64,000 nucleotides of DNA from Gammaproteobacteria bacterium (GTDB lineage Bacteria; Pseudomonadota; Gammaproteobacteria; UBA4575). Numbering within the stretch: the first letter of the stretch is position 1; every line of letters starts with the position of its first letter. The DNA is taken from contig JBGCDS010000010.1 of the NCBI GenBank assembly GCA_045105615.1, forward strand, positions 24,452 through 88,451, in the 5' to 3' direction. Made by a program: the position numbers and the translations under genes. The notes beneath the pieces are model-generated. The model was not told the origin of the DNA and made no database searches. It was given only the letters and a program-made list of their open reading frames with translations. Shown here in pieces: positions 3,756 to 47,404 of this stretch.

Positions 3756-5540
3756 CTATCCTGTTTGCTGGCGACCGTATAGTTTAGTGTATAAACCATT
3801 AGACCCTAGAAGCTCCTCATGACTACCGTGCTCACTGATCATGCCATCGTCAAACACAAATACTCTATCAGCCTGCTTCACAGCACTAAGTCGATGCGCC
3901 ACAATAATAGTCGTTCTATCCTGCAAAAACGACTGCAAGGATTCATGCACACGCGCTTCAGTATCAGCATCCAACGCTGAAGTAGCTTCATCAAGAATGA
4001 CTACATTAGGGTTAGTTAACGCCATACGCGCGATTGCAATACGTTGACGTTGACCACCAGACAATCTAATTCCATCCATCCCTAAGATGCTATCTAAGCC
4101 ACGAGGCATTTGCTCGACGATATCTCGTATCTGTGCAACTTCTAATACTTCCCAAAGCTGTTCATCTGGCACATCTCTGCCTAGAGTTAAATTCATACGA
4201 AGTGAATCGTTAAATAGTGCAGGATGTTGCAACACGCAAGAAACATGCTCTCGCACAACCTCCATACCTATTTTTTGCATCGACACACCATTAAATTTAA
4301 TCTCTCCAAATAATGGTGGATACAACCCAAGAAGCACTTGGACGAGTGTAGACTTACCTCCACCACTCGCACCGACTAATGCTACTTTTTCACCAGCCGC
4401 AATAGAAAGGTTGACGCCATTAAGTACATAAGGCCCATCACCATAGGCAAACTTAATACCTTCTATATCCACAGCCATACCTTTTTGCTTAAGGAATGGA
4501 TTTAGCTCGTGCTCATAAACCGGTTCATTAGGCAGATACATTAATTCATTAATACGCCCTAATGCAGCCTTTGCACTAAAGTATGAATATTGAATATTCA
4601 ACACATCTTGCACCGGCCCCATCATGAACCAAAGATAGCCAAACACCGCAATCATTTCACCAATAGATAACCCAGCAAATAACACCATTGCCATGCCGAC
4701 AGCACGAAAAACATCAAATCCAACTAAAAAGATAACAAACGACAAACGATTAGCAGCATCGCTTTTCCATGAATAAGCCGCCGAGTGATCACGCACTTTT
4801 GCAGCCAATTTATCAACGCGCGATAGGTAAAACTTCTCCCGATTACTTGCTCTAATTTGCTGAATACCATCGAGTGTTTCAGTCAATGCCTGTTGAAATA
4901 TCTCGAAGGCTTTATTTTCATTCTTTTTTAAATTCTTAACACGTTTACCCATCACCATCGTGAAATAAATCACCACGGGATTCATCAAAAGTATAAATAG
5001 TGCTAATTGCCAGTGCAGCCAGAGCAAAATCGCAGCCACGCCAATAATAGTTAACACTGAAACAATAACTTTACTGACTGTCTCACCAGCAAAACTATCA
5101 ACTGTATTCAAATCCGTAACAAATAAAGATGAAACAGTACCACTGCCAACTGTTTCATATTCTGACATGGCTATAGACTGCAATCTGTTTAGCAATTGCG
5201 AACGAATTTTATAAACAACATTTTTAGAGATACCAACAAACTTTTTAGTCTGCCATAGGTTAAGCAGCACTGAGGTAACTCTAAGGATAACGGTGATGAC
5301 CAAAATCCCTGCAATATAAAATAGCGGACTATGATCTGAACTCGATGACAACCAATCAAACGCGGCAACCACCTTGCCTGGTTGATCAAGTAAAATCTCA
5401 TCAACCAGTAGTGGAATCAATAATGGAATCGGCACGCTAGCCAACACTGCAAATATTGCGATAATGTTGGCTACTACTAAAGTACGCCGATGCTGCAACG
5501 CCAACTGAACAATATATTTAAATGTATATGTTGCTGGCAT
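3756..5540 (-). CDS. ABC transporter fused permease/ATP-binding protein (exporter type, MsbA/multidrug-like)
   Basis: 594 aa. N-terminal 6-TM domain; Walker A GASGGGKST; signature LSGGQRQRIAIAR; Walker B ILDEATSALD. Confidence 0.85.
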   Translation of the reverse strand: MPATYTFKYIVQLALQHRRTLVVANIIAIFAVLASVPIPLLIPLLVDEILLDQPGKVVAAFDWLSSSSDHSPLFYIAGILVITVILRVTSVLLNLWQTKKFVGISKNVVYKIRSQLLNRLQSIAMSEYETVGSGTVSSLFVTDLNTVDSFAGETVSKVIVSVLTIIGVAAILLWLHWQLALFILLMNPVVIYFTMVMGKRVKNLKKNENKAFEIFQQALTETLDGIQQIRASNREKFYLSRVDKLAAKVRDHSAAYSWKSDAANRLSFVIFLVGFDVFRAVGMAMVLFAGLSIGEMIAVFGYLWFMMGPVQDVLNIQYSYFSAKAALGRINELMYLPNEPVYEHELNPFLKQKGMAVDIEGIKFAYGDGPYVLNGVNLSIAAGEKVALVGASGGGKSTLVQVLLGLYPPLFGEIKFNGVSMQKIGMEVVREHVSCVLQHPALFNDSLRMNLTLGRDVPDEQLWEVLEVAQIRDIVEQMPRGLDSILGMDGIRLSGGQRQRIAIARMALTNPNVVILDEATSALDADTEARVHESLQSFLQDRTTIIVAHRLSAVKQADRVFVFDDGMISEHGSHEELLGSNGLYTKLYGRQQTG

Positions 5541-5578
5541 TGTATTTTTACTTATTTATTAAACCTTAGCTAAAATCC

Positions 5579-5953
5579 CTATTCGCTTTCTTTTTTCTCT
5601 TCTTCATCCATTGATGCGCGAACTTGATCCATATCTAGTCCTTTTACCTTCTCAATAATATCTTCCAGCTGCGCGGGTGCTAATGCCCCTGCTTGGTTGA
5701 ATAATAAGATTTGTTCCCTGAATATCATCAACGTTGGTATAGATCTGATTTGGCATGCCTGGCCCAGTTCTGTTTGCTCTTCAGTATTCACCTTTGCAAA
5801 GGTAACATCGGTATGATTTTCAGACGCCATTTCAAATGTTGGCGCAAAAGATTTACACGGTCCACACCATTCTGCCCAGAAATCAATAATGACAATATTA
5901 TTTCCTTGGATTGTATCGTTAAAATTATCAGAATTAAGCTCCAGCGTGGCCAT
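5579..5953 (-). CDS. Thioredoxin
   Basis: 124 aa. WCGPC active site; acidic C-terminal tail. Confidence 0.85.
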   Translation of the reverse strand: MATLELNSDNFNDTIQGNNIVIIDFWAEWCGPCKSFAPTFEMASENHTDVTFAKVNTEEQTELGQACQIRSIPTLMIFREQILLFNQAGALAPAQLEDIIEKVKGLDMDQVRASMDEEEKKESE

Positions 5954-6566: not shown

Positions 6567-7817
6567 TTAACTTACTGTATAGAAAATTCTATCCAACATA
6601 AAATGAAAAAAATACGCTTGAGTAGCTGCCGAGCTCTCCAATAGATTTGATTTTGATACACGCAACACTTGAGACTTCACTAGCGCCTCACAACGATAGT
6701 TAGAAAATTGCTTAGACAAAATATTATCAGACAACCACTGTTTTGCATTTATAGTAAAATGCTGACCTTCAGTCACTAACAGAGCCTTCCCTTCTATGAG
6801 ACACAGATACTCATCCAACAATTGCTCATTAAAAATTATATCACCGCTATTAACGGACGAAATTTCTAAGCAATTAGCTAACTCATGAAGTACTTCCAAA
6901 TTACTATCTTCAAATATCTCAAATTTTTTAAGTTGATCTGTATCTAAGTCTTCATAGTTATTTTCATTAGTACTAATTTGATCTGCCACAATTAAAATCT
7001 CAGTCTCAAATTCTGCTGCCGAATTAAATCTATTTTCAGGTTGTTTAGTTAGCGCTTTTACAAGCAATGCTTTCAACGATTCTGGGTGGATGTCTTCTAT
7101 TGCCTCTGGCTCACTGCCAATAATTTTATACAACACGGCGTGTGCATCATCACCAGAGAAAGGCAAATCGCCGACAATCATTTCATATAATAATACGGCT
7201 ACTGAAAATAGATCACTCAATTCATTTGCTAACGTACCATCAATTAATTCTGGCGCCATGTAGGATGGTGTTCCCATTAGCCCCGAATCATCAGCCTCAC
7301 CCGAATTTAATATAGAAATTCCAAAATCTACTACTTTCACCTGCTCATTTTGAGTAATCATTATATTGCTTGGCTTAATATCACGATGAATAATATTTTT
7401 TGTATGCGCGTAATCTAACGCATGACAAATCTGCGCAGCAATATTCAATGCTGTGCTAATAGGCAAAGATTTCTTCCGCTTTAAAAGCGCTAACAAACTC
7501 TCGCCTTGGATATATTCCATGACAATATAGCCTTCATAATCACCAATTCCTGCATCGTATACTGAGACAATATTTTGATGTTGCAATCGTCCAATTGCCT
7601 GCGCTTCAGCATAGAACAAATCATTAGCTACTAAGTCTTCATCTCCACTGGGATCAAACAATTGAATGACTTTTATTGCGACCTTGCGGTCAAGGAATGG
7701 ATCATAAGAACAAAACAAAGTGCGCGTCGGCTGAGTACGCACAGCTTCTTCTAAAGAAAATTTTCCGATGTTTCCAGTAGAAGCTAAACTTCTCCTACGT
7801 TGCCGTCTTTCAAGCAA
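6567..7817 (-). CDS. Hanks-type Ser/Thr protein kinase with C-terminal cyclic-nucleotide-binding-like domain
   Basis: 416 aa. VAIK, HRDIKPSN, DFG, APE motifs. C-terminal ~120 aa resemble a CRP/cNMP-binding beta-barrel (GDIIFNEQ...CLIEGKALLV). Confidence 0.75.
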   Translation of the reverse strand: MLERRQRRRSLASTGNIGKFSLEEAVRTQPTRTLFCSYDPFLDRKVAIKVIQLFDPSGDEDLVANDLFYAEAQAIGRLQHQNIVSVYDAGIGDYEGYIVMEYIQGESLLALLKRKKSLPISTALNIAAQICHALDYAHTKNIIHRDIKPSNIMITQNEQVKVVDFGISILNSGEADDSGLMGTPSYMAPELIDGTLANELSDLFSVAVLLYEMIVGDLPFSGDDAHAVLYKIIGSEPEAIEDIHPESLKALLVKALTKQPENRFNSAAEFETEILIVADQISTNENNYEDLDTDQLKKFEIFEDSNLEVLHELANCLEISSVNSGDIIFNEQLLDEYLCLIEGKALLVTEGQHFTINAKQWLSDNILSKQFSNYRCEALVKSQVLRVSKSNLLESSAATQAYFFHFMLDRIFYTVS

Positions 7818-7838
7818 TGAATTTCCTTCACTTATACA

Positions 7839-9203
7839 TTAATGATTCAAACGCTGGTTGAGACCGGTAATAAGTTTGTCGCAAACCCCACCAAAACCAC
7901 CATTACTCAAGATAAGCACATTATCCTGAGGCTGTAAGATTGACAGCAAATATTCGACCAAACGTTCTATATCAGTGAATATATTGCTATGTAGACCCGA
8001 TAATACCCTCTCTATCGACCAACTCAACTCACCGCTATCATAAATACATAGTTCAGTTGCAGGAGATAAAGCTTCTTTCAAACGATGCGCATGAATGCCC
8101 ATCTGCATGGTATTTGAACGAGGCTCAAATACTACAATCATTCTTTGCTTATCATACTGCTGCTTAAAGGCTTCTAAAGTACATTTGATTTCAGTTGGAT
8201 GATGTGCAAAATCATCGTAAATAGTAATTCCATCGTACACGCCTTTATTTTCTAGACGTCTTTTCACTCCAGTAAAATTAGAAAGCGCTTTTAACGAATG
8301 CTCTACACTTACACCTGCATGTCTTGCAGCACTTATTGCAGCCATTGCATTCAAGGCATTATGTTCGCCTAATAAAGATAAGCGCCCCTCGTATCTTTTA
8401 CCTCCCTGTGTTGAAATTTTATAAGGGTTTTTTTTATCGTGCACATTTGCTAGATGCCAATAATTAGATGCTTTCACTCCGAATGATTCATTTTCAGACC
8501 AGAGCCCCTGGTCTAACACCTGTTGAATATTCTCATCATCACCATTGAAAATTAGCTTACCTAACTGCGGAAGAATTTTTATCACATGATGGAATTGTTT
8601 CTGCACATCTTGAAGATCACGAAAAATATCTGCATGATCAAATTCAATATTATTAATGATCAAGGTGCGCGGCTGATAGTGAACGAACTTAGAGCGCTTA
8701 TCAAAAAAGGCTGTGTCATATTCATCAGCCTCAATAACAAAAAATGGTTTATCTCCAATACGCGCAGAGACACCAAAATCATTTGGCACGCCTCCTATTA
8801 AAAAACCAGGCTGCATCCCTGCATGTTCCAGGATCCATGCAAGCATGCTCGCGGTAGTTGTTTTGCCATGCGTACCTGACACTGCAAGCACCCAGCGGCT
8901 TTGCAACAAATGCTCACTCAACCATTGAGGCCCCGATATCATTGGCCATTGCTCACTCAGCATTCGCTCTATCACAGAGTGCCCTCGAGTCATTACATTC
9001 CCTACAACGACCTGATCAGGACGTATATCTAATTGCGATGCATCAAAGCCTTCAATTAAATCAATACCTGCCGCTTCAAGCTGTGTACTCATAGGTGGAT
9101 AGACGCCCTCATCTGAGCCAGTAACTTGATAACCCATTTGTTTAGCCAGCAGCGCCAAGCCACCCATAAATGTTCCACATACCCCGAGGAAGTGAATATG
9201 CAT
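7839..9203 (-). CDS. mpl: UDP-N-acetylmuramate:L-alanyl-gamma-D-glutamyl-meso-diaminopimelate ligase
   Basis: 454 aa. Mur ligase family, N-terminus MHIHFLGVCGTFMGGLA; GTHGKTT P-loop. Confidence 0.85.
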   Translation of the reverse strand: MHIHFLGVCGTFMGGLALLAKQMGYQVTGSDEGVYPPMSTQLEAAGIDLIEGFDASQLDIRPDQVVVGNVMTRGHSVIERMLSEQWPMISGPQWLSEHLLQSRWVLAVSGTHGKTTTASMLAWILEHAGMQPGFLIGGVPNDFGVSARIGDKPFFVIEADEYDTAFFDKRSKFVHYQPRTLIINNIEFDHADIFRDLQDVQKQFHHVIKILPQLGKLIFNGDDENIQQVLDQGLWSENESFGVKASNYWHLANVHDKKNPYKISTQGGKRYEGRLSLLGEHNALNAMAAISAARHAGVSVEHSLKALSNFTGVKRRLENKGVYDGITIYDDFAHHPTEIKCTLEAFKQQYDKQRMIVVFEPRSNTMQMGIHAHRLKEALSPATELCIYDSGELSWSIERVLSGLHSNIFTDIERLVEYLLSILQPQDNVLILSNGGFGGVCDKLITGLNQRLNH

Positions 9204-9204
9204 T

Positions 9205-9747
9205 TTATATCCTTAGCATTTCTGAAATTGAAAGAAGCATCATGGCATTTAACAATCTATAGCCCAAACTAATGGATATGCCTGATGATAGATTTAGATC
9301 AGCAGCATGTCTCACAATATGTCCATAGGCTATTATTATCCATATAAACATTAAGAAAAATAAAAGCCTGCCAACACTTGAAATATCTTTGACATTTTGA
9401 TCAACGATAAATACATATGAACATATCGTATGCAAAAAACCAATAACCACTCCGACACCTAAAAATGCATTGAACGTTTGATTGATACGCTCTTTTTTAC
9501 CTCGTAATATCAGCCGTGTGAAAATATATAATAGAATTAAATCCAATACGCCATGAATAGCGCCTTTTGTAAATCCATAAATAAGCAACGCATTCAATAT
9601 GGACAATCCCAAATACAGGTATATTAATATTATTCGGAACGCCTTAGATGAGGGACAATCTTGCGGCTTAGCACTTAGCAATGCCAGACGAATATAATAC
9701 TCAAGAATATATTTCATTCGCTTAGCGTATAAATTTATATATGCCAC
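9205..9747 (-). CDS. Hypothetical polytopic inner-membrane protein
   Basis: 180 aa, 4-5 hydrophobic helices. Overlaps the upstream lpxA-like gene by 26 bp. Confidence 0.45.
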   Translation of the reverse strand: MAYINLYAKRMKYILEYYIRLALLSAKPQDCPSSKAFRIILIYLYLGLSILNALLIYGFTKGAIHGVLDLILLYIFTRLILRGKKERINQTFNAFLGVGVVIGFLHTICSYVFIVDQNVKDISSVGRLLFFLMFIWIIIAYGHIVRHAADLNLSSGISISLGYRLLNAMMLLSISEMLRI

Positions 9748-10480
9748 GCTTTGATGGCGCCGCCAACCAGTCTTCTAACAGCACCAATTCCTTTGTGGTT
9801 GCTGGATAAGGCTCACAATCACCTGTGCGAATTAGGCGAATTCTTTTTTCTAGGGCCTTATATTTATCGCCCGTAATCCCCGCTCTGCGCAAACCAATTG
9901 TATTCAACTTGTAATGCGCTACCGGATCTCGCCCCAACAGACAAAATGGCAATACATCTTTTGCAACAGGCGCAAATCCGCTTACCATGGCATAGGCGCC
10001 AATACGACAAAACTGATGTATCCCTACATTACCGCCAATGATGGCTTTATCTCCTACTTCCACATGCCCACTAAGTGCTGCGTAAGCAGTAAGAATCACC
10101 TCATTACTTAACAAACAATTGTGTCCCACATGTGTATTACACATTAGATAACAACCGTTACCTATTTTAGTCAGCTCTTGATTATTATTAGCGCGATGCA
10201 CTGAGCAAAACTCTCGAAAAATATTATCATTACCAATTTCCAACCAAGTTTCTTCGCCGTGGTAGGAAATATCTTGCGGCGCACCACCAAGCACAACATG
10301 ATCAGCGACGGTATTTCGCTCACCCATGTTGACGTAAGAATGAATTATGCTATGTGCACCAATGGTAGTTCCTGAACCGATGCGCACATTAGCATGCACG
10401 ATTGAATATGGTCCGACTTCTACATCTTCTTCTAGATTTGCTGAGCTAGAGACAATTGCTGTTGTATGAATATTTGCCAT
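9722..10480 (-). CDS. LpxA-family acyl-ACP--UDP-GlcNAc O-acyltransferase paralog (left-handed beta-helix hexapeptide repeats)
   Basis: 252 aa. Hexapeptide repeats and C-terminal helical domain align with LpxA. Not in the canonical lpxD-fabZ-lpxA-lpxB context. Confidence 0.7.
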   Translation of the reverse strand: MANIHTTAIVSSSANLEEDVEVGPYSIVHANVRIGSGTTIGAHSIIHSYVNMGERNTVADHVVLGGAPQDISYHGEETWLEIGNDNIFREFCSVHRANNNQELTKIGNGCYLMCNTHVGHNCLLSNEVILTAYAALSGHVEVGDKAIIGGNVGIHQFCRIGAYAMVSGFAPVAKDVLPFCLLGRDPVAHYKLNTIGLRRAGITGDKYKALEKRIRLIRTGDCEPYPATTKELVLLEDWLAAPSKRGIYKFIR

Positions 10481-10519
10481 GCCGAATAATATCTGATTCG
10501 GCTGAAGGGGTGAAGGTGA

Positions 10520-12914
<2,395 letters not shown>

Positions 12915-40613: not shown

Positions 40614-40698
40614 GCCGGGGTGGCGGAATTGGTAGACGCGCCGGATTCAAAATCCGGTTTCTTCGGAAGTGCGAGTTCGATTCTCGCCCTCGGCACCA
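40614..40698 (+). tRNA. tRNA-Leu (anticodon CAA), class II with long variable arm, CCA encoded
   Basis: Cloverleaf readable: acceptor GCCGGGG/CCTCGGC, anticodon stem CCGGA/TCCGG, loop TTCAAAA, long variable arm. Confidence 0.85.
40644..40698 (+). repeat. attL: 55-bp 3' segment of tRNA-Leu, duplicated exactly at 47128-47182
   Basis: Exact 55-bp direct repeat read by eye in both places. Confidence 0.75.
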
Positions 40699-40799
40699 TT
40701 TAAAAACAGATAGTTACGCAAACACGATCGATCGAACAATTTTTTAAATGTGTTTACGGGGGAGTTATAGGGGATTGCGCATCGTTTACTCATAAAATC

Positions 40800-41720
40800 C
40801 TATCGTGCAGGATTATTAAAATGCTTCACTAGCGCCACTCCATTATGATTCTCAATTAACTTATATGCAGACGTATTCATTATCGTATGCATGAAGCAAT
40901 GGTGCACAGTTAGCACTAAATCCTGCAATTCTGAGTTTGCTTCTAAATCCTCAATTTTCAATCCCAATTCTTTACACTCGTCAATATGTATATGTCTATC
41001 ATGTTGCCGGTTGGTGTCGATTGCAGACAATTTATCTGTTATGTGCCTCGCCTTTTCTTCGGCGTCGGTTTCTCCCTCAAACATACATGTGACCAATTGC
41101 TTCTGCACAAAATCGTTTGCCAGCTTAACTGTATCCTCAACCGTTTTAAAAAATCCAATAGCATATTTGTTAAGTATTGGATGCCATATAAGCGCTCTAG
41201 CCTGATCAGTTTTCATTTCATCGTATGCTTGCTGAAATTCATCAAGTATGGAATATGCTGAAGTACCATTAATTTGCGGATCAATTGGCCCCAAGTTTGA
41301 TTGCTTACCCATCACTATAGATTTACAAGAGCATGACATGATCGTTCCTGCTGACATAGAAATCTGCGGCACAATTGCCCTGATATTATTGCCAAACATT
41401 CTGTGCAAATAGTCAATCAACGATTGAGATGCTGCTAGAGAGCCGCCCGGAGTATGGAGAATCAGATCCAAACCCAAACTTCTATCCATCTGATGCACAG
41501 CCATCATTAACCCATTTTTATCTTCATCTGTTATGGACATTTCTTGAGAATATGGCTTACTCAACCAACCCGAGTAATAACAGATGACGTTTCTATTTGT
41601 AAATCCAAAAAGTTCTTGCAAATATTTTCTTCTAATAGTGTCCGATACAGAAATTATTGCATTCTCATGCTGTTTAATTAATTGATTATGTTCAGTTAAG
41701 ATCTCATTCCAATTTGGCAT
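40800..41720 (-). CDS. SDH-family (serine dehydrogenase proteinase, ClpP/crotonase-fold, S49-like) serine protease, stand-alone cargo of the island
   Basis: 306 aa. Similarity to Clp-fold SDH/SppA-like proteases (LHTPGGS..., GPIDPQ segments). Confidence 0.6.
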   Translation of the reverse strand: MPNWNEILTEHNQLIKQHENAIISVSDTIRRKYLQELFGFTNRNVICYYSGWLSKPYSQEMSITDEDKNGLMMAVHQMDRSLGLDLILHTPGGSLAASQSLIDYLHRMFGNNIRAIVPQISMSAGTIMSCSCKSIVMGKQSNLGPIDPQINGTSAYSILDEFQQAYDEMKTDQARALIWHPILNKYAIGFFKTVEDTVKLANDFVQKQLVTCMFEGETDAEEKARHITDKLSAIDTNRQHDRHIHIDECKELGLKIEDLEANSELQDLVLTVHHCFMHTIMNTSAYKLIENHNGVALVKHFNNPAR

Positions 41721-42359
41721 TTTATTACCCTATTTTTACTTTATATCGACTCGCCTGATAGATTTGTTGCATTACGTGCTATATTTAAAATCTCAATAAA
41801 GTACTGTTACTAAAAAGAATCGACATACTGATTACATTCAATAATCTAATATAGCCATATAAAAATCATGAAAAGTGATACTAATACAACCATTATTGAA
41901 AAACACAAATATATTGACTCAACAATCGATCAGTATATTTCTGAGCATGGTCCAGAATTCTTTGGCTCACGCAGCATCTCGGTCAGCATTGATGGATCTG
42001 GAGTGCTAAAAAATCTTATTAACAATCTCGAGCAACCCGAAAGAGAGTCATTTGTATCATCAAATGCTTTTTTACTGGACTGATTTAGTTTCAGACTAGA
42101 GATTGAGCCATTCCAGCGGCTTACTGAATTTTTCAAAGTTGGCGCAAGCCTAAGACCATACCGGAAGTATATTTCTCAATCATTCTGCTTGAATTATTAA
42201 CATCCACTCCCCTTAAACTCCCCCATTTTCAGCAGCATAAAAGGTCTAACGCGCTATTGCTAGCCTATAAAGCATGAAGTCACAAGATTATATATCCTGT
42301 GTTGCCATATATTGGGCTTTGTTGTAGGTTATATCTAAGATTAATTTCAGGCCAAATAC

Positions 42360-43421
42360 ATGGCTCACATCGAAGCCCGTACAGATAAAAAAGGCAAAAC
42401 TCGCTACCGCGTTCAGATAAGACTAAAAGGACACCCAACTCAGTCAGCAACTTTCGAACGCAAAACTGATGCTAAGAAATGGGCACAAGACACCGAATCA
42501 GCGATTCGAGATGGCCGTCATTTTAAAACTGTTGAGTCAAAACGACATACTGTCGGCGAAATGTTAGATCGATACATCAAGACCGTACTTCCCAAAAAAG
42601 GTAAAAATCAATCTAACCAGAAACCTCAACTCGAATGGTGGAAGGAGAAAATTGGGGGCTATCTACTTGCAGACGCAACACCATCTCTAATTGCTGAACA
42701 CCGCGATATGCTTCAAGAAGACAAAACGCACATGGGGACCAAGCGATCCCCTTCCACCGCCAACAGATACCTTGCTGCGCTCTCTCACTGCTTCACAGTA
42801 GCTGTTAATGAGTGGGAATGGCTAGATGACTCCCCCATGCGAAAAGTGCGCAAATGCAAAGAACCACGAGGCCGGGTGAGATTCTTATCTGATGATGAAA
42901 GAAAACGATTACTCCTTGCATGCCAAGAAGTTGAGAATGGAAGTCTGTACCCTATTGTTGTGCTGGCCCTCTCTACGGGTGCTAGACAATCAGAAATACT
43001 CACATTGAAATGGAAACAGGTGAATTTAAAGCGCGGCCAAATTACATTATTTGACACAAAGAATGACGAAATTCGCTCAATCCCACTAGTTGGCCACGCT
43101 CACGAGATAATTCAACGGCTATCGCAAATTCGAAGAATTGATTCTGATCTACTTTTCCCAGGGAAAAGAAATAAAAAATCACCAACCACTATACGAGCTG
43201 CCTGGGAAAAAGCGCTTGAAATTGCTGAGATTGAAGATTTCCGCTTTCATGACCTCAGACATAGTGCAGCATCCTATCTCGCCATGAGCGGCGGCACACT
43301 CGCTGAGATCGCAGACATATTAGGACACAAGACACTGCAAATGGTGAAGAGGTATGCGCACCTTTCAGATAGTCATAACAGCAAGGTTGTATCAAAAATG
43401 AATGATCAAATTTTTAGCTGA
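42360..43421 (+). CDS. Tyrosine-type site-specific recombinase/integrase (phage integrase family, N-terminal arm-binding domain)
   Basis: 353 aa. Catalytic R (TGARQSE), HxxR (HDLRHS), H (LGH), Y (RYAHL). Confidence 0.9.
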   Translation: MAHIEARTDKKGKTRYRVQIRLKGHPTQSATFERKTDAKKWAQDTESAIRDGRHFKTVESKRHTVGEMLDRYIKTVLPKKGKNQSNQKPQLEWWKEKIGGYLLADATPSLIAEHRDMLQEDKTHMGTKRSPSTANRYLAALSHCFTVAVNEWEWLDDSPMRKVRKCKEPRGRVRFLSDDERKRLLLACQEVENGSLYPIVVLALSTGARQSEILTLKWKQVNLKRGQITLFDTKNDEIRSIPLVGHAHEIIQRLSQIRRIDSDLLFPGKRNKKSPTTIRAAWEKALEIAEIEDFRFHDLRHSAASYLAMSGGTLAEIADILGHKTLQMVKRYAHLSDSHNSKVVSKMNDQIFS

Positions 43422-45992: not shown

Positions 45993-46091
45993 GAAAATAA
46001 AAAGGTCAGACTTGTTGATATATAGGCGACATACAAAGACATTACACTTGAAACATAAAAGTTTAATTTTATTGTTAGCGAATGACCGCTA

Positions 46092-46595
46092 TTGAGCCGT
46101 AAAGTGACAAATAAGACACCCATGAAAACAACCAATGTAATCACATTAATAATATTTTTATTGACGGGGTGCGGTTTATCGAACTCAGAAATTGGTATGT
46201 GTTATCCACAGGGAAATCACTTAGATTTATTTACAGAGGAATTAGATAAGCGAGGCATTACCTATACTAACGATGCTCAAAATCCTGAGTGTGTAAATAT
46301 GATGAACATATCGGATGAAGATGTCCAAGAAATACAAGACTATGTTTTTGGAATTTCTCCACCAGCTAAATATAGTCGTGCATTTAAAATTTCAGGCTTT
46401 CTTGAGTCAACGAATGATCTTAGCGATCTAGAAAACATTGAATATAAGAATGATAATTTGCGTGCAATAAATATACTTGAGGAAAATGATATCAAAGTGA
46501 AAACTATGGTCTATTTTGGTACAGAGCATATTGTTTGGAATAAGAAGGACGATGTGCGAGTAAGAGAGTTGCTAAACTTAGAGCCTCCCAAATGA
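46092..46595 (+). CDS. Hypothetical lipoprotein (lipobox LLTGC). True start probably the internal ATG (MKTTNVITLIIFLLTGCG)
   Basis: 167 aa. Signal peptide plus lipobox Cys. Confidence 0.5.
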   Translation: MSRKVTNKTPMKTTNVITLIIFLLTGCGLSNSEIGMCYPQGNHLDLFTEELDKRGITYTNDAQNPECVNMMNISDEDVQEIQDYVFGISPPAKYSRAFKISGFLESTNDLSDLENIEYKNDNLRAINILEENDIKVKTMVYFGTEHIVWNKKDDVRVRELLNLEPPK

Positions 46596-46601
46596 CCGCT
46601 A

Positions 46602-46958
46602 TTGAGCCGAAAGAAGACTACTTTATCCATGGATAAAGATGAATTAATTGCAGAACGAGAATTGATCTTCGTAGCACCTGACGGCTCAGAGACTTTCTCT
46701 AGCGTGCAGTTTGGTACGCCATATTTCACTGATGAGCATGGATGTTGTTGTGATTGGGAAATTCCAGGTATTGAGAAGCGTCGTTTTGCTGCTGGTGTAG
46801 ATGGAATACAGGCAATTTTATTATCTATGTTAATGGTAGCGTCACACCTCGATAATAAAAGTGATAAAGGTTGGAAGTTTTTGTGGCCTGATGATCGGTC
46901 GCAATCATCTGTCAGTGAATTATTTTCAGCTGAGCAGTTCAAAAAGTTAACTGAATGA
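46602..46958 (+). CDS. Hypothetical protein, acidic, CCC motif
   Basis: 118 aa. Shares a 19-nt leader with the preceding gene. Confidence 0.4.
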   Translation: MSRKKTTLSMDKDELIAERELIFVAPDGSETFSSVQFGTPYFTDEHGCCCDWEIPGIEKRRFAAGVDGIQAILLSMLMVASHLDNKSDKGWKFLWPDDRSQSSVSELFSAEQFKKLTE

Positions 46959-47127
46959 CTGCTTTTGCGTCGGTAGCATTATCAAATTAAGTTAAGGGGA
47001 CTTACGGGGGAAATTTCAACAACCTCTGACAATAATTGACTACTATCCCCAATCAAACAATTAGGTTAACTTCTTGATTTTGATATTGGAGTTTATGGCG
47101 GTTGATGGTGACATGTTGCTCTTGGAT

Positions 47128-47182
47128 GATTCAAAATCCGGTTTCTTCGGAAGTGCGAGTTCGATTCTCGCCCTCGGCACCA
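47128..47182 (+). repeat. attR: 55-bp direct repeat of the tRNA-Leu 3' end
   Basis: Exact copy of 40644-40698. Confidence 0.75.
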
Positions 47183-47327: not shown

Positions 47328-47404
47328 GCCCCGGTAGCTCAGCTGGATAGAGCGTCCCCCTCCTAAGGGGAAGGCCGTGCGTTCGAATCGCGCTCGGGGC
47401 ACCA
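47328..47404 (+). tRNA. tRNA-Arg (anticodon CCT), CCA encoded
   Basis: Acceptor GCCCCGG/TCGGGGC, anticodon stem TCCCC/GGGGA, loop CTCCTAA. Confidence 0.8.

Follow-up and report, generated by a model that had tools for sequence, protein, structure and literature searches.

We analysed a 64,000-nucleotide window of contig JBGCDS010000010.1 from a gammaproteobacterial genome assembly (GCA_045105615.1, lineage UBA4575) and, within it, a gene for an SDH-type (PF01972) Clp-fold serine protease that is read on the minus strand as an intact open reading frame (ORF) of 306 residues with an ATG start (40800..41720). The gene belongs, as an atypical case, to a two-gene protease cassette that has not been described before; where the usual small partner would be expected, it has instead acquired a divergent orphan gene, here called orf71 (71 residues; 41868..42083, plus strand). 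The protease family is already catalogued in Pfam, NCBIfam and PHROG; its biology and its small partner are not, and no published study of the family was found in the literature, including work on phage, anti-phage and defence contexts.

The family-wide operon and the exceptional copy in the window

A genome scan found homologues of the protease in at least 575 species, and the best 80 loci were analysed; the operon analysis covered 92 loci, 80 of them these genome loci, with crude ORF calling. In nearly every locus a same-strand ORF of 55-115 residues abuts the start of the protease gene, at a distance of about −8 to +13 nt. A profile hidden Markov model (HMM) of the partner, built from these abutting small ORFs with the window and its sister island L004 left out, detected a single ORF in each of 76 loci out of 92 (for the genome loci, 68 out of 80), and in 70 loci this ORF lies immediately upstream of the protease on the same strand. 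Given this arrangement, which recurs in most loci, the family, judged by gene order, normally forms a tight two-gene operon, nearly always with the small upstream partner. The partner is about 60 residues long, with a Lys/Arg-rich N-terminus, a LExxYxxxF motif and then SLEQPSPLKxVPSxTTYG(AYEEPI), often at the very C-terminus. A profile search retrieved 102 partner proteins of 52-106 residues, whose genes were called by independent pipelines and are all named 'hypothetical'; none of the 102 has a match in Pfam. On this recurrence, the small partner can be taken as a real gene family. Seven HMM-negative loci (L039, L062, L071, L077, L080, L083 and L088) have an abutting same-strand small ORF of other sequence. 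No conserved third gene emerged from all-versus-all clustering of 1013 neighbouring ORFs, which yielded the partner, a transposase of the insertion sequence (IS) type IS1 with a small K/R-rich companion, and integrases.

Two kinds of variant were seen. In the metagenomic proteins P0180 and P0238, a partner-like segment is fused in frame to the MANW... start of the protease; the segment is K-rich, contains 'IEKFEKMF' and has a Ser/Thr-rich strand, and both proteins are C-terminally truncated. They could be Rosetta-stone fusions that exist in nature, or else gene calls that read through a stop. At L064 (5454-8909), the partner (5454-5639) is split from the protease (8001-8909) by a same-strand ORF of 754 residues, which may represent a three-gene variant of the operon.

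In many loci the small protein ends, or very nearly ends, with the conserved motif, which brings up peptide maturation: the protease would release this end (...TTYGAYEEPI), which would then act as a signal or bioactive peptide. The NfeD/1510-N Clp-fold protease specifically cleaves its operon partner stomatin, and cleavage of an operon partner thus has a precedent. However, nothing conserved in the neighbourhood encodes a signal peptide, transporter, receptor or modification enzyme, the window copy has no precursor at all, and we consider such a maturation pair quite improbable.

The first-pass annotation had described the protease as encoded alone, without a cognate partner, which it held to be unusual in itself. 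The canonical partner is indeed missing, and no remnant of it was found upstream of the window protease in any frame, but the gene is not alone: orf71, acquired together with it, lies 147 nt upstream on the opposite strand. Likewise, the lack of a cognate partner is true of the window but not of the family, which is no orphan; since family members almost always have a partner, the partner-less window copy is unusual for another reason than the one first given. Orf71 is conserved in the sister island as orf73, with 51% amino acid identity, and apart from that copy no homologue was found among 5.8e9 proteins. Because the reading frame is intact and equally long in both copies, with a nonsynonymous divergence (dN) of 0.37 and a saturated synonymous divergence (dS), orf71 is, by its pattern of substitution, a real gene. 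We regard it as a candidate non-canonical partner of the protease. Homology between orf71 and the canonical partner was looked for and could not be demonstrated; by eye, 'IIEKHKYID' and 'LEQPERESFVSSNAF' resemble the two partner motifs, but the partner HMM was blank on orf71 even at E ≤ 200. The AT-rich intergenic region of 147 nt from which protease and orf71 diverge (41721..41867) is the presumed location of their promoters, and a sigma-70 scan of it returned no convincing site.

The window protease itself carries lineage-specific changes. At 17 positions, each conserved to 88-100% elsewhere, it and a second protease, P0002, depart from all 33 of the remaining aligned homologues. The positions cluster at residues 154-158 and 188-201 (DNA at about 41118-41259 covers residues 154-158 and 186-201), and the changes include P154S, G157S, P188I, T189G, L191F, Q193T/S, C194V, N196D, W200L and S201A; among 91 family members, P188I and C194V are seen nowhere else. 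The clustering suggests that residues 186-201 form a surface that was remodelled alongside replacement of the partner. As a separate observation, the changes in the window and P0002 proteins coincide with loss of the canonical partner.

The protease and its fold

The assignment to the PF01972 family ('ClpP-like SDH-type serine proteinase') made in the first-pass annotation holds, as residues 63-257 match the profile with an E-value of 2.5e-22 and 79.7 bits against a gathering score of 31.3 bits, covering profile positions 73-245 of 286. The protease scored 92.5 bits with the Clp_like_SDH equivalog NF047768, under its cut-off of 250, and PF00574 (ClpP) is not among the reported Pfam matches. 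The best-fitting library family is PHROG 11747, matched over the full length at 2e-93 and listed with function unknown; the features proper to this subfamily are an N-terminal MPNW helix pair and an HH-containing C-terminal domain. A weak match to an NfeD profile was also obtained (PF25145, 7.7e-4).

The Clp fold proposed from the letters alone was borne out by structure prediction. An AlphaFold2 model computed from 35 homologues, with phage-collection sequences left out, reached a predicted local distance difference score (pLDDT) of 87.7 and a predicted template modelling score (pTM) of 0.85, and all top matches to it in the PDB are ClpP (Foldseek, E about 2e-4, TM-score on target 0.55-0.67, 11-17% identity). 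A search of solved structures with the family profile gave ClpP at 3.7e-5 over 84 residues and NfeD 1510-N (3bpp) at 0.056, and nothing closer. Among predicted viral structures (BFVD), the top matches are giant-virus 'serine dehydrogenase proteinases' (E 1e-10, TM-score about 0.6). These BFVD matches include giant viruses with multiple SDH-type proteinase paralogues, namely Hyperionvirus, Klosneuvirus, Harvfovirus and the Mimivirus and Marseillevirus LCM lineages.

Ser123, in the motif SMSAGT, takes the place of the catalytic Ser when the protease is aligned with ClpP 1y7o and with NfeD 3bpp, and it is invariant in 35-38 homologues along with His89 (HTPGG), Asp147 (IDPQ), His240, His273, His274, Lys287 and Glu290. 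By this alignment, Ser123 is the predicted nucleophile of the protease. No transmembrane or hydrophobic segment and no signal peptide was found in the protease (maximum 19-residue Kyte-Doolittle mean 1.09), and for lack of a hydrophobic segment the protein is expected to be cytoplasmic and soluble. Taken together, the gene probably encodes a soluble, active Clp-fold serine protease.

Two conventional roles bear on these scores. One is that of an ordinary housekeeping peptidase of the S49/SppA kind that lies in the island by chance. The identical protein at NCBI, from a gammaproteobacterial metagenome-assembled genome, is named 'S49 family peptidase', and some sources annotate it with this name or as 'ClpP class serine protease'. 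However, the match to TIGR00706 (SppA) is 20.5 bits against a cut-off of 155.45, the protein has neither a membrane segment nor a signal peptide, the gene lies inside att-bounded DNA, and the family has a sporadic, horizontally transferred distribution with variable neighbours, without vertical syntenic conservation within clades. We therefore consider a chance housekeeping gene very improbable, and the SppA reading is ruled out by score, context and lack of a hydrophobic segment. The other is that of a relic or satellite-type capsid (prohead) maturation protease. Weak similarity to head-maturation profiles was recorded (phrog_53 at 2.2e-7; NF045542 at 19.7 bits), and the copies in Porphyromonas prophages lie within the structural gene block. 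Against this, the NF045542 score is far under the cut-off of 120, no capsid, portal or terminase gene was found in the window island by Pfam and PHROG scans, the family is present in IS elements of 2.5 kb, and the Porphyromonas copies stand beside HicAB in a moron-like spot. A prohead protease is extremely improbable, being effectively refuted by context and scores.

A discrete insertion in a tRNA-Leu island and the spread of the family

The protease gene is part of an island of 6.48 kb, located near secDF-yajC-tgt-queA and bounded by a perfect 55-nt direct repeat. The integration target is a tRNA-Leu(CAA) gene (40614..40698, plus strand; ARAGORN), the 3' 55 nt of which form the attL core (40644-40698), and attR is the duplicated 3' end of this tRNA gene (47128..47182, plus strand). 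The protease is followed by orf71 on the plus strand, by a tyrosine integrase gene (42360..43421, plus strand; PF00589 at 1.9e-32, phrog_1 at 9.5e-77) and then by small genes without clear function, among them a weak DnaD-like match, DUF5681 and DUF6968. The protease thus lies between attL and the integrase gene and is transcribed toward the tRNA, as had been noted at first reading. The sister island L004, found at the same site in another metagenome, has a protease with 83% and an integrase with 87% amino acid identity, and its tail is shorter than that of the window island.

Protease and orf71 are bracketed by an inverted pair of a 15-nt motif, GGGGAGTTWWAGGGG, the left copy of which (GGGGAGTTATAGGGG) lies at 40759..40773 on the plus strand and the right copy (GGGGAGTTTAAGGGG) at 42209..42223 on the minus strand, about 140 nt upstream of the integrase gene. 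The motif has two matches in the 64 kb, versus 0.13 expected, and both copies are conserved in L004. A comparison set of 80 metagenomic loci with related integrases (45-75% identity) was then used, and protease and orf71 were both absent from all 80. Two of these loci, L095 and L096, have integrases that are 71-72% identical to that of the window and are inserted at the same tRNA-Leu, with only 337 nt between the tRNA end and the integrase start; they contain a homologous inverted pair with a spacing of about 85 nt, versus 1435 nt in the window. Since the motif pair is adjacent in the cargo-less L095 and L096 and 1435 nt apart in the window, protease and orf71 are, on this spacing, one discrete insertion of about 1.43 kb between the motif copies, acquired together. 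The approximate boundaries of this accessory cassette (40774..42208) follow from the same spacing and from its low GC content, which is 0.34-0.37 compared to 0.40-0.45 in the integrase gene and the host flanks. Its location inside the att repeats and its absence from the 80 related-integrase loci, including the two at the same tRNA-Leu, give good support to the earlier description of the protease as island cargo. The motif pair probably represents predicted arm-type sites of the integrase or an operator. A further copy with three mismatches (AGGGGACTTACGGGGGA) was found by eye near attR (46993-47009, plus strand).

A terminator-like hairpin of the protease itself, which the first-pass annotation had reported, was not recovered. 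A terminator scan between the protease stop and the tRNA found nothing, and shuffled sequences fold as well as the 3' region of the protease (z = 0.45). The only structures that can be drawn there are an AU-rich hairpin of 6 bp that spans the stop codon and a stem of 9 bp closing a 24-nt loop. The sole terminator-like site nearby, a hairpin with a T-run at 42104..42123 on the plus strand, follows the orf71 stop at a distance of 20 nt.

Two observations concern the distal end of the island. A tRNA-Arg(CCT) gene lies at 47328-47404, 146 nt beyond attR, and the island therefore interrupts a tRNA-Leu/tRNA-Arg pair downstream of queA. In addition, a 22-nt unit, AATGACCGCTATTGAGCCG(T/A)AA, occurs three times (46081-46102, 46591-46612 and 46954-46975; 73-95% identity). 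Its TGA is the stop of the preceding gene in the copies at 46591 and 46954, and its TTG, 6 nt further on, is the start of the next gene in the copies at 46081 and 46591 (orf167 and DUF6968, respectively); orf167 is lipoprotein-like, with an LLTGC lipobox. Such identical gene junctions suggest serial addition or duplication of cassettes at this end.

The position of the window cassette, exactly between putative integrase-binding motifs and the promoter region of the integrase gene, would suit a regulator of the mobile element's life cycle, whereby the protease would process a repressor, Int/Xis or the small protein and thereby control excision or induction. ImmA cleaves ImmR in ICEBs1 in such a role. 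Further copies stand beside integrases or tRNAs (L021, L025, L042 and L080): in the L021 island the order is integrase, partner, protease and tRNA-Glu, with the tRNA 96 nt downstream, and in the L025 island it is tRNA-Lys, integrase, partner and protease. A copy in a Mu-like Shewanella phage lies between the Mor/C regulators and the lysis genes. However, most copies have no integrase or phage nearby and are found in IS1-type transposons or amid housekeeping genes, the 80 related-integrase islands manage without the cassette, and no repressor-like helix-turn-helix (HTH) gene is conserved beside the protease. Control of the life cycle is thus an unlikely function for the family.

The family as a whole is large and dispersed. 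More than 6,500 relatives of the protease were retrieved at E < 1e-5, and among 1.84 billion representatives of 50%-identity clusters, 302 clusters matched at E ≤ 1e-30 and 1,179 at E ≤ 1e-10. The best 80 homologues are 48-60% identical to the window protease and come from about ten phyla, the source taxa including Gammaproteobacteria, Nitrospirota, Nitrospinota, Planctomycetota, Chloroflexota, Acidobacteriota, Verrucomicrobiota, Desulfobacterota and others. An identity of 48-60% throughout, with about 50-57% kept across so many phyla, argues for horizontal spread. In addition to the Shewanella and Porphyromonas copies, Gordonia phage BeeGee carries one between the tail genes and the integrase region; such copies in temperate phages stand at moron-like positions.

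A further vehicle is an IS1-family element, in which the operon lies at 15 of the 80 loci. The element consists of a transposase of 275-300 residues (HTH plus DDE_Tnp_IS1), a K/R-rich protein of 65-90 residues with 'GGKARAxKLT', and a cargo slot between the two genes, both of which are on the strand opposite to the operon. At L029 (6747-9237), the unit of about 2.5 kb has 28-nt terminal inverted repeats at both ends; the terminal inverted repeats of the element start with GGTAGTGGG. At L046, two such elements stand in tandem (about 6800-9245 and 9250-12521), one carrying the protease operon and the other a gene with a P63C domain, the latter element with perfect 20-nt inverted repeats. The element is also found in L026, L032, L033, L043, L056, L057, L065, L070 and L072. 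Moreover, one Acidobacteriota chromosome (OY970265.1) has two copies of the operon 296 kb apart, at 4.58 and 4.88 Mb (L053 and L054), and each is preceded by the same gene (ORF 6687-7682 in both loci), as duplication or transposition would produce.

The 147 nearest neighbours of the homologues match 186 Pfam families, and homologues are thus not confined to consistent housekeeping contexts, an outcome that would have told against the earlier view. Integrases, IS1 transposases, terminases, PIN, AbiEi, BrxL, type IIG restriction-modification (RM), SspH and DRT are among these families. At L005 and L013, AbiEi/AbiEii and a nucleotidyltransferase lie beside the operon, and type I RM, DRT reverse transcriptases and SIR2-TPR are further neighbours of the defence type. 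In one species-level lineage (L007-L012), the operon occupies a variable spot flanked by a metallophosphatase gene on one side and argG on the other; a SIR2_2-TPR protein of 836-924 residues is encoded immediately downstream in L007, L008 and L012 (9125-11899) and is absent in L009-L011. From its gene content, this spot is a hotspot that appears to gather defence-like genes. At some loci, AbiE, BREX, RM or SIR2 genes stand beside the operon, but housekeeping neighbours are common, and the link with defence genes, though suggestive, is not overwhelming.

Carriage by phages, IS elements and islands in a cargo-like position could also mean that the protease is an anti-defence or establishment factor, which would degrade immune sensors or effectors of the host upon entry of the element. 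We find this decidedly unlikely. Stable chromosomal residence beside AbiE, BREX, RM and SIR2-TPR is the usual signature of defence and toxin-antitoxin (TA) genes, copies are very rare in viral contigs, and the high conservation across phyla argues against an arms-race effector with host-specific targets.

Possible function and comparison with known systems

We propose, with a probability of roughly 35-40%, that the canonical pair is a partner-gated protease conflict module of the TA or abortive-infection (Abi) type. In its canonical form the cassette would be a translationally coupled operon of partner and then protease. The small protein would dock on the protease via its conserved, strand-like C-terminal motif and gate it as an inhibitor, a dedicated substrate or a cofactor, and the pair would act as a selfish module of this kind: once loss of the element or phage infection, for example, had removed or displaced the labile partner, the protease would be freed to cleave cellular or invader proteins. 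In the lineage of the window, the canonical partner would have been replaced, with orf71 as the candidate substitute and residues 186-201 remodelled to match. The proposal is favoured because a small, variable upstream gene overlaps a conserved effector in an operon, because the operon is carried as a passenger by IS elements, phages and islands and is occasionally resident in defence islands, and because Clp-fold NfeD provides the precedent of a protease that acts on its operon partner.

Several points weigh against the conflict module. Toxicity, defence and cleavage of the partner are proposals only, and neither the protease nor any other of the 10 island proteins matches a model of PADLOC-DB v2. 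Among the 147 nearest neighbours, no more than about 10 can be recognised as defence genes (an approximate count), and many are housekeeping genes. The family is rare in viral contigs, with six IMG/VR loci with the patterns used. The general base of the active site stands at candidate level, with His89, Asp147, His240, His273, His274 and Lys287 as the candidates. Finally, the canonical partner is absent from both the window and L004, with no match to the partner HMM even at E ≤ 200, and a gene without a partner is awkward for a constitutive toxin unless orf71 substitutes; in the rejected comparison of orf71 with the canonical partner, hhalign aligned 10 columns ('LEQP') with P = 0.04 and a probability of 1.3%. 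It is possible, though doubtful, that partner and protease constitute an unrecognised, very widely transferred type of TA or Abi system with a Clp-fold effector, spread as a passenger of IS1-family transposons, phages and tRNA islands, of which the window would show a natural partner-swap variant.

The matter is relevant to work on defence systems, TA modules and mobile elements, as the importance of protease effectors for bacterial immunity is becoming apparent and no Clp-fold protease module was present in the defence or TA catalogues searched. A large family, conserved across phyla and carried on at least three kinds of mobile element, with a tiny motif-bearing partner, offers a compact and testable two-gene system. 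Its copy in the window is a natural experiment in partner replacement, with residues 186-201 as a possible partner interface.

Of the known systems, PF01972 itself (MEROPS S49-related; NCBIfam NF047768) is the family to which the protease is assigned, with a score above gathering, the Clp/crotonase fold and the Ser in an MSAG turn; the protease differs in that the profile is matched in part and the equivalog cut-off is missed, and its subfamily is that of PHROG 11747. To our knowledge, no member of this subfamily has a described function. ClpP (MEROPS S14) is the nearest solved fold, with its catalytic Ser aligned, but identity is 11-17%, the window protease is about 130 residues longer, and there is no sign of a ClpX/ClpA partner or of a tetradecamer. 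Moreover, from a reading of the sequences, the position of His122 in ClpP is apparently taken by the invariant Asp147 (IDPQ versus IHQP). The S49/ClpP-type prohead proteases of phages (lambda gpC and ClpP-like head-maturation proteases) share the fold superfamily and weak HMM similarity, whereas the window island lacks a capsid module, the scores are far under the family cut-offs, and the family also occurs in IS elements and at phage-free chromosomal sites. NfeD/STOPP 1510-N (Pyrococcus PH1510/PH1511) is likewise a Clp-fold Ser protease in an operon with a specific partner, and gives weak profile matches. In contrast to the present family, it is membrane-bound, uses a Ser-Lys dyad, has a large stomatin partner and is not cargo of mobile elements, whereas the small partner described here is a soluble protein of 60 residues.

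In gene arrangement, the family bears a likeness to type II TA and AbiE operons, in which a small upstream antitoxin gene overlaps a conserved toxin gene, and to the predicted Xre-COG2856 (ImmA/IrrE protease) pairs, in which a small upstream gene likewise overlaps a better-conserved downstream gene. The present family differs in that a Clp-fold protease is absent from known TA toxins and PADLOC proteins and the partner has no recognisable DNA-binding fold; the window copy differs further in its non-canonical gene order and orientation. The architecture of a small upstream gene with a conserved larger one is family-wide, whereas the small gene of the window is divergent and 147 nt away. With the TA, AbiE and Xre-COG2856 pairs, the family also shares a sporadic horizontal spread through prophages, islands, transposons and defence islands.

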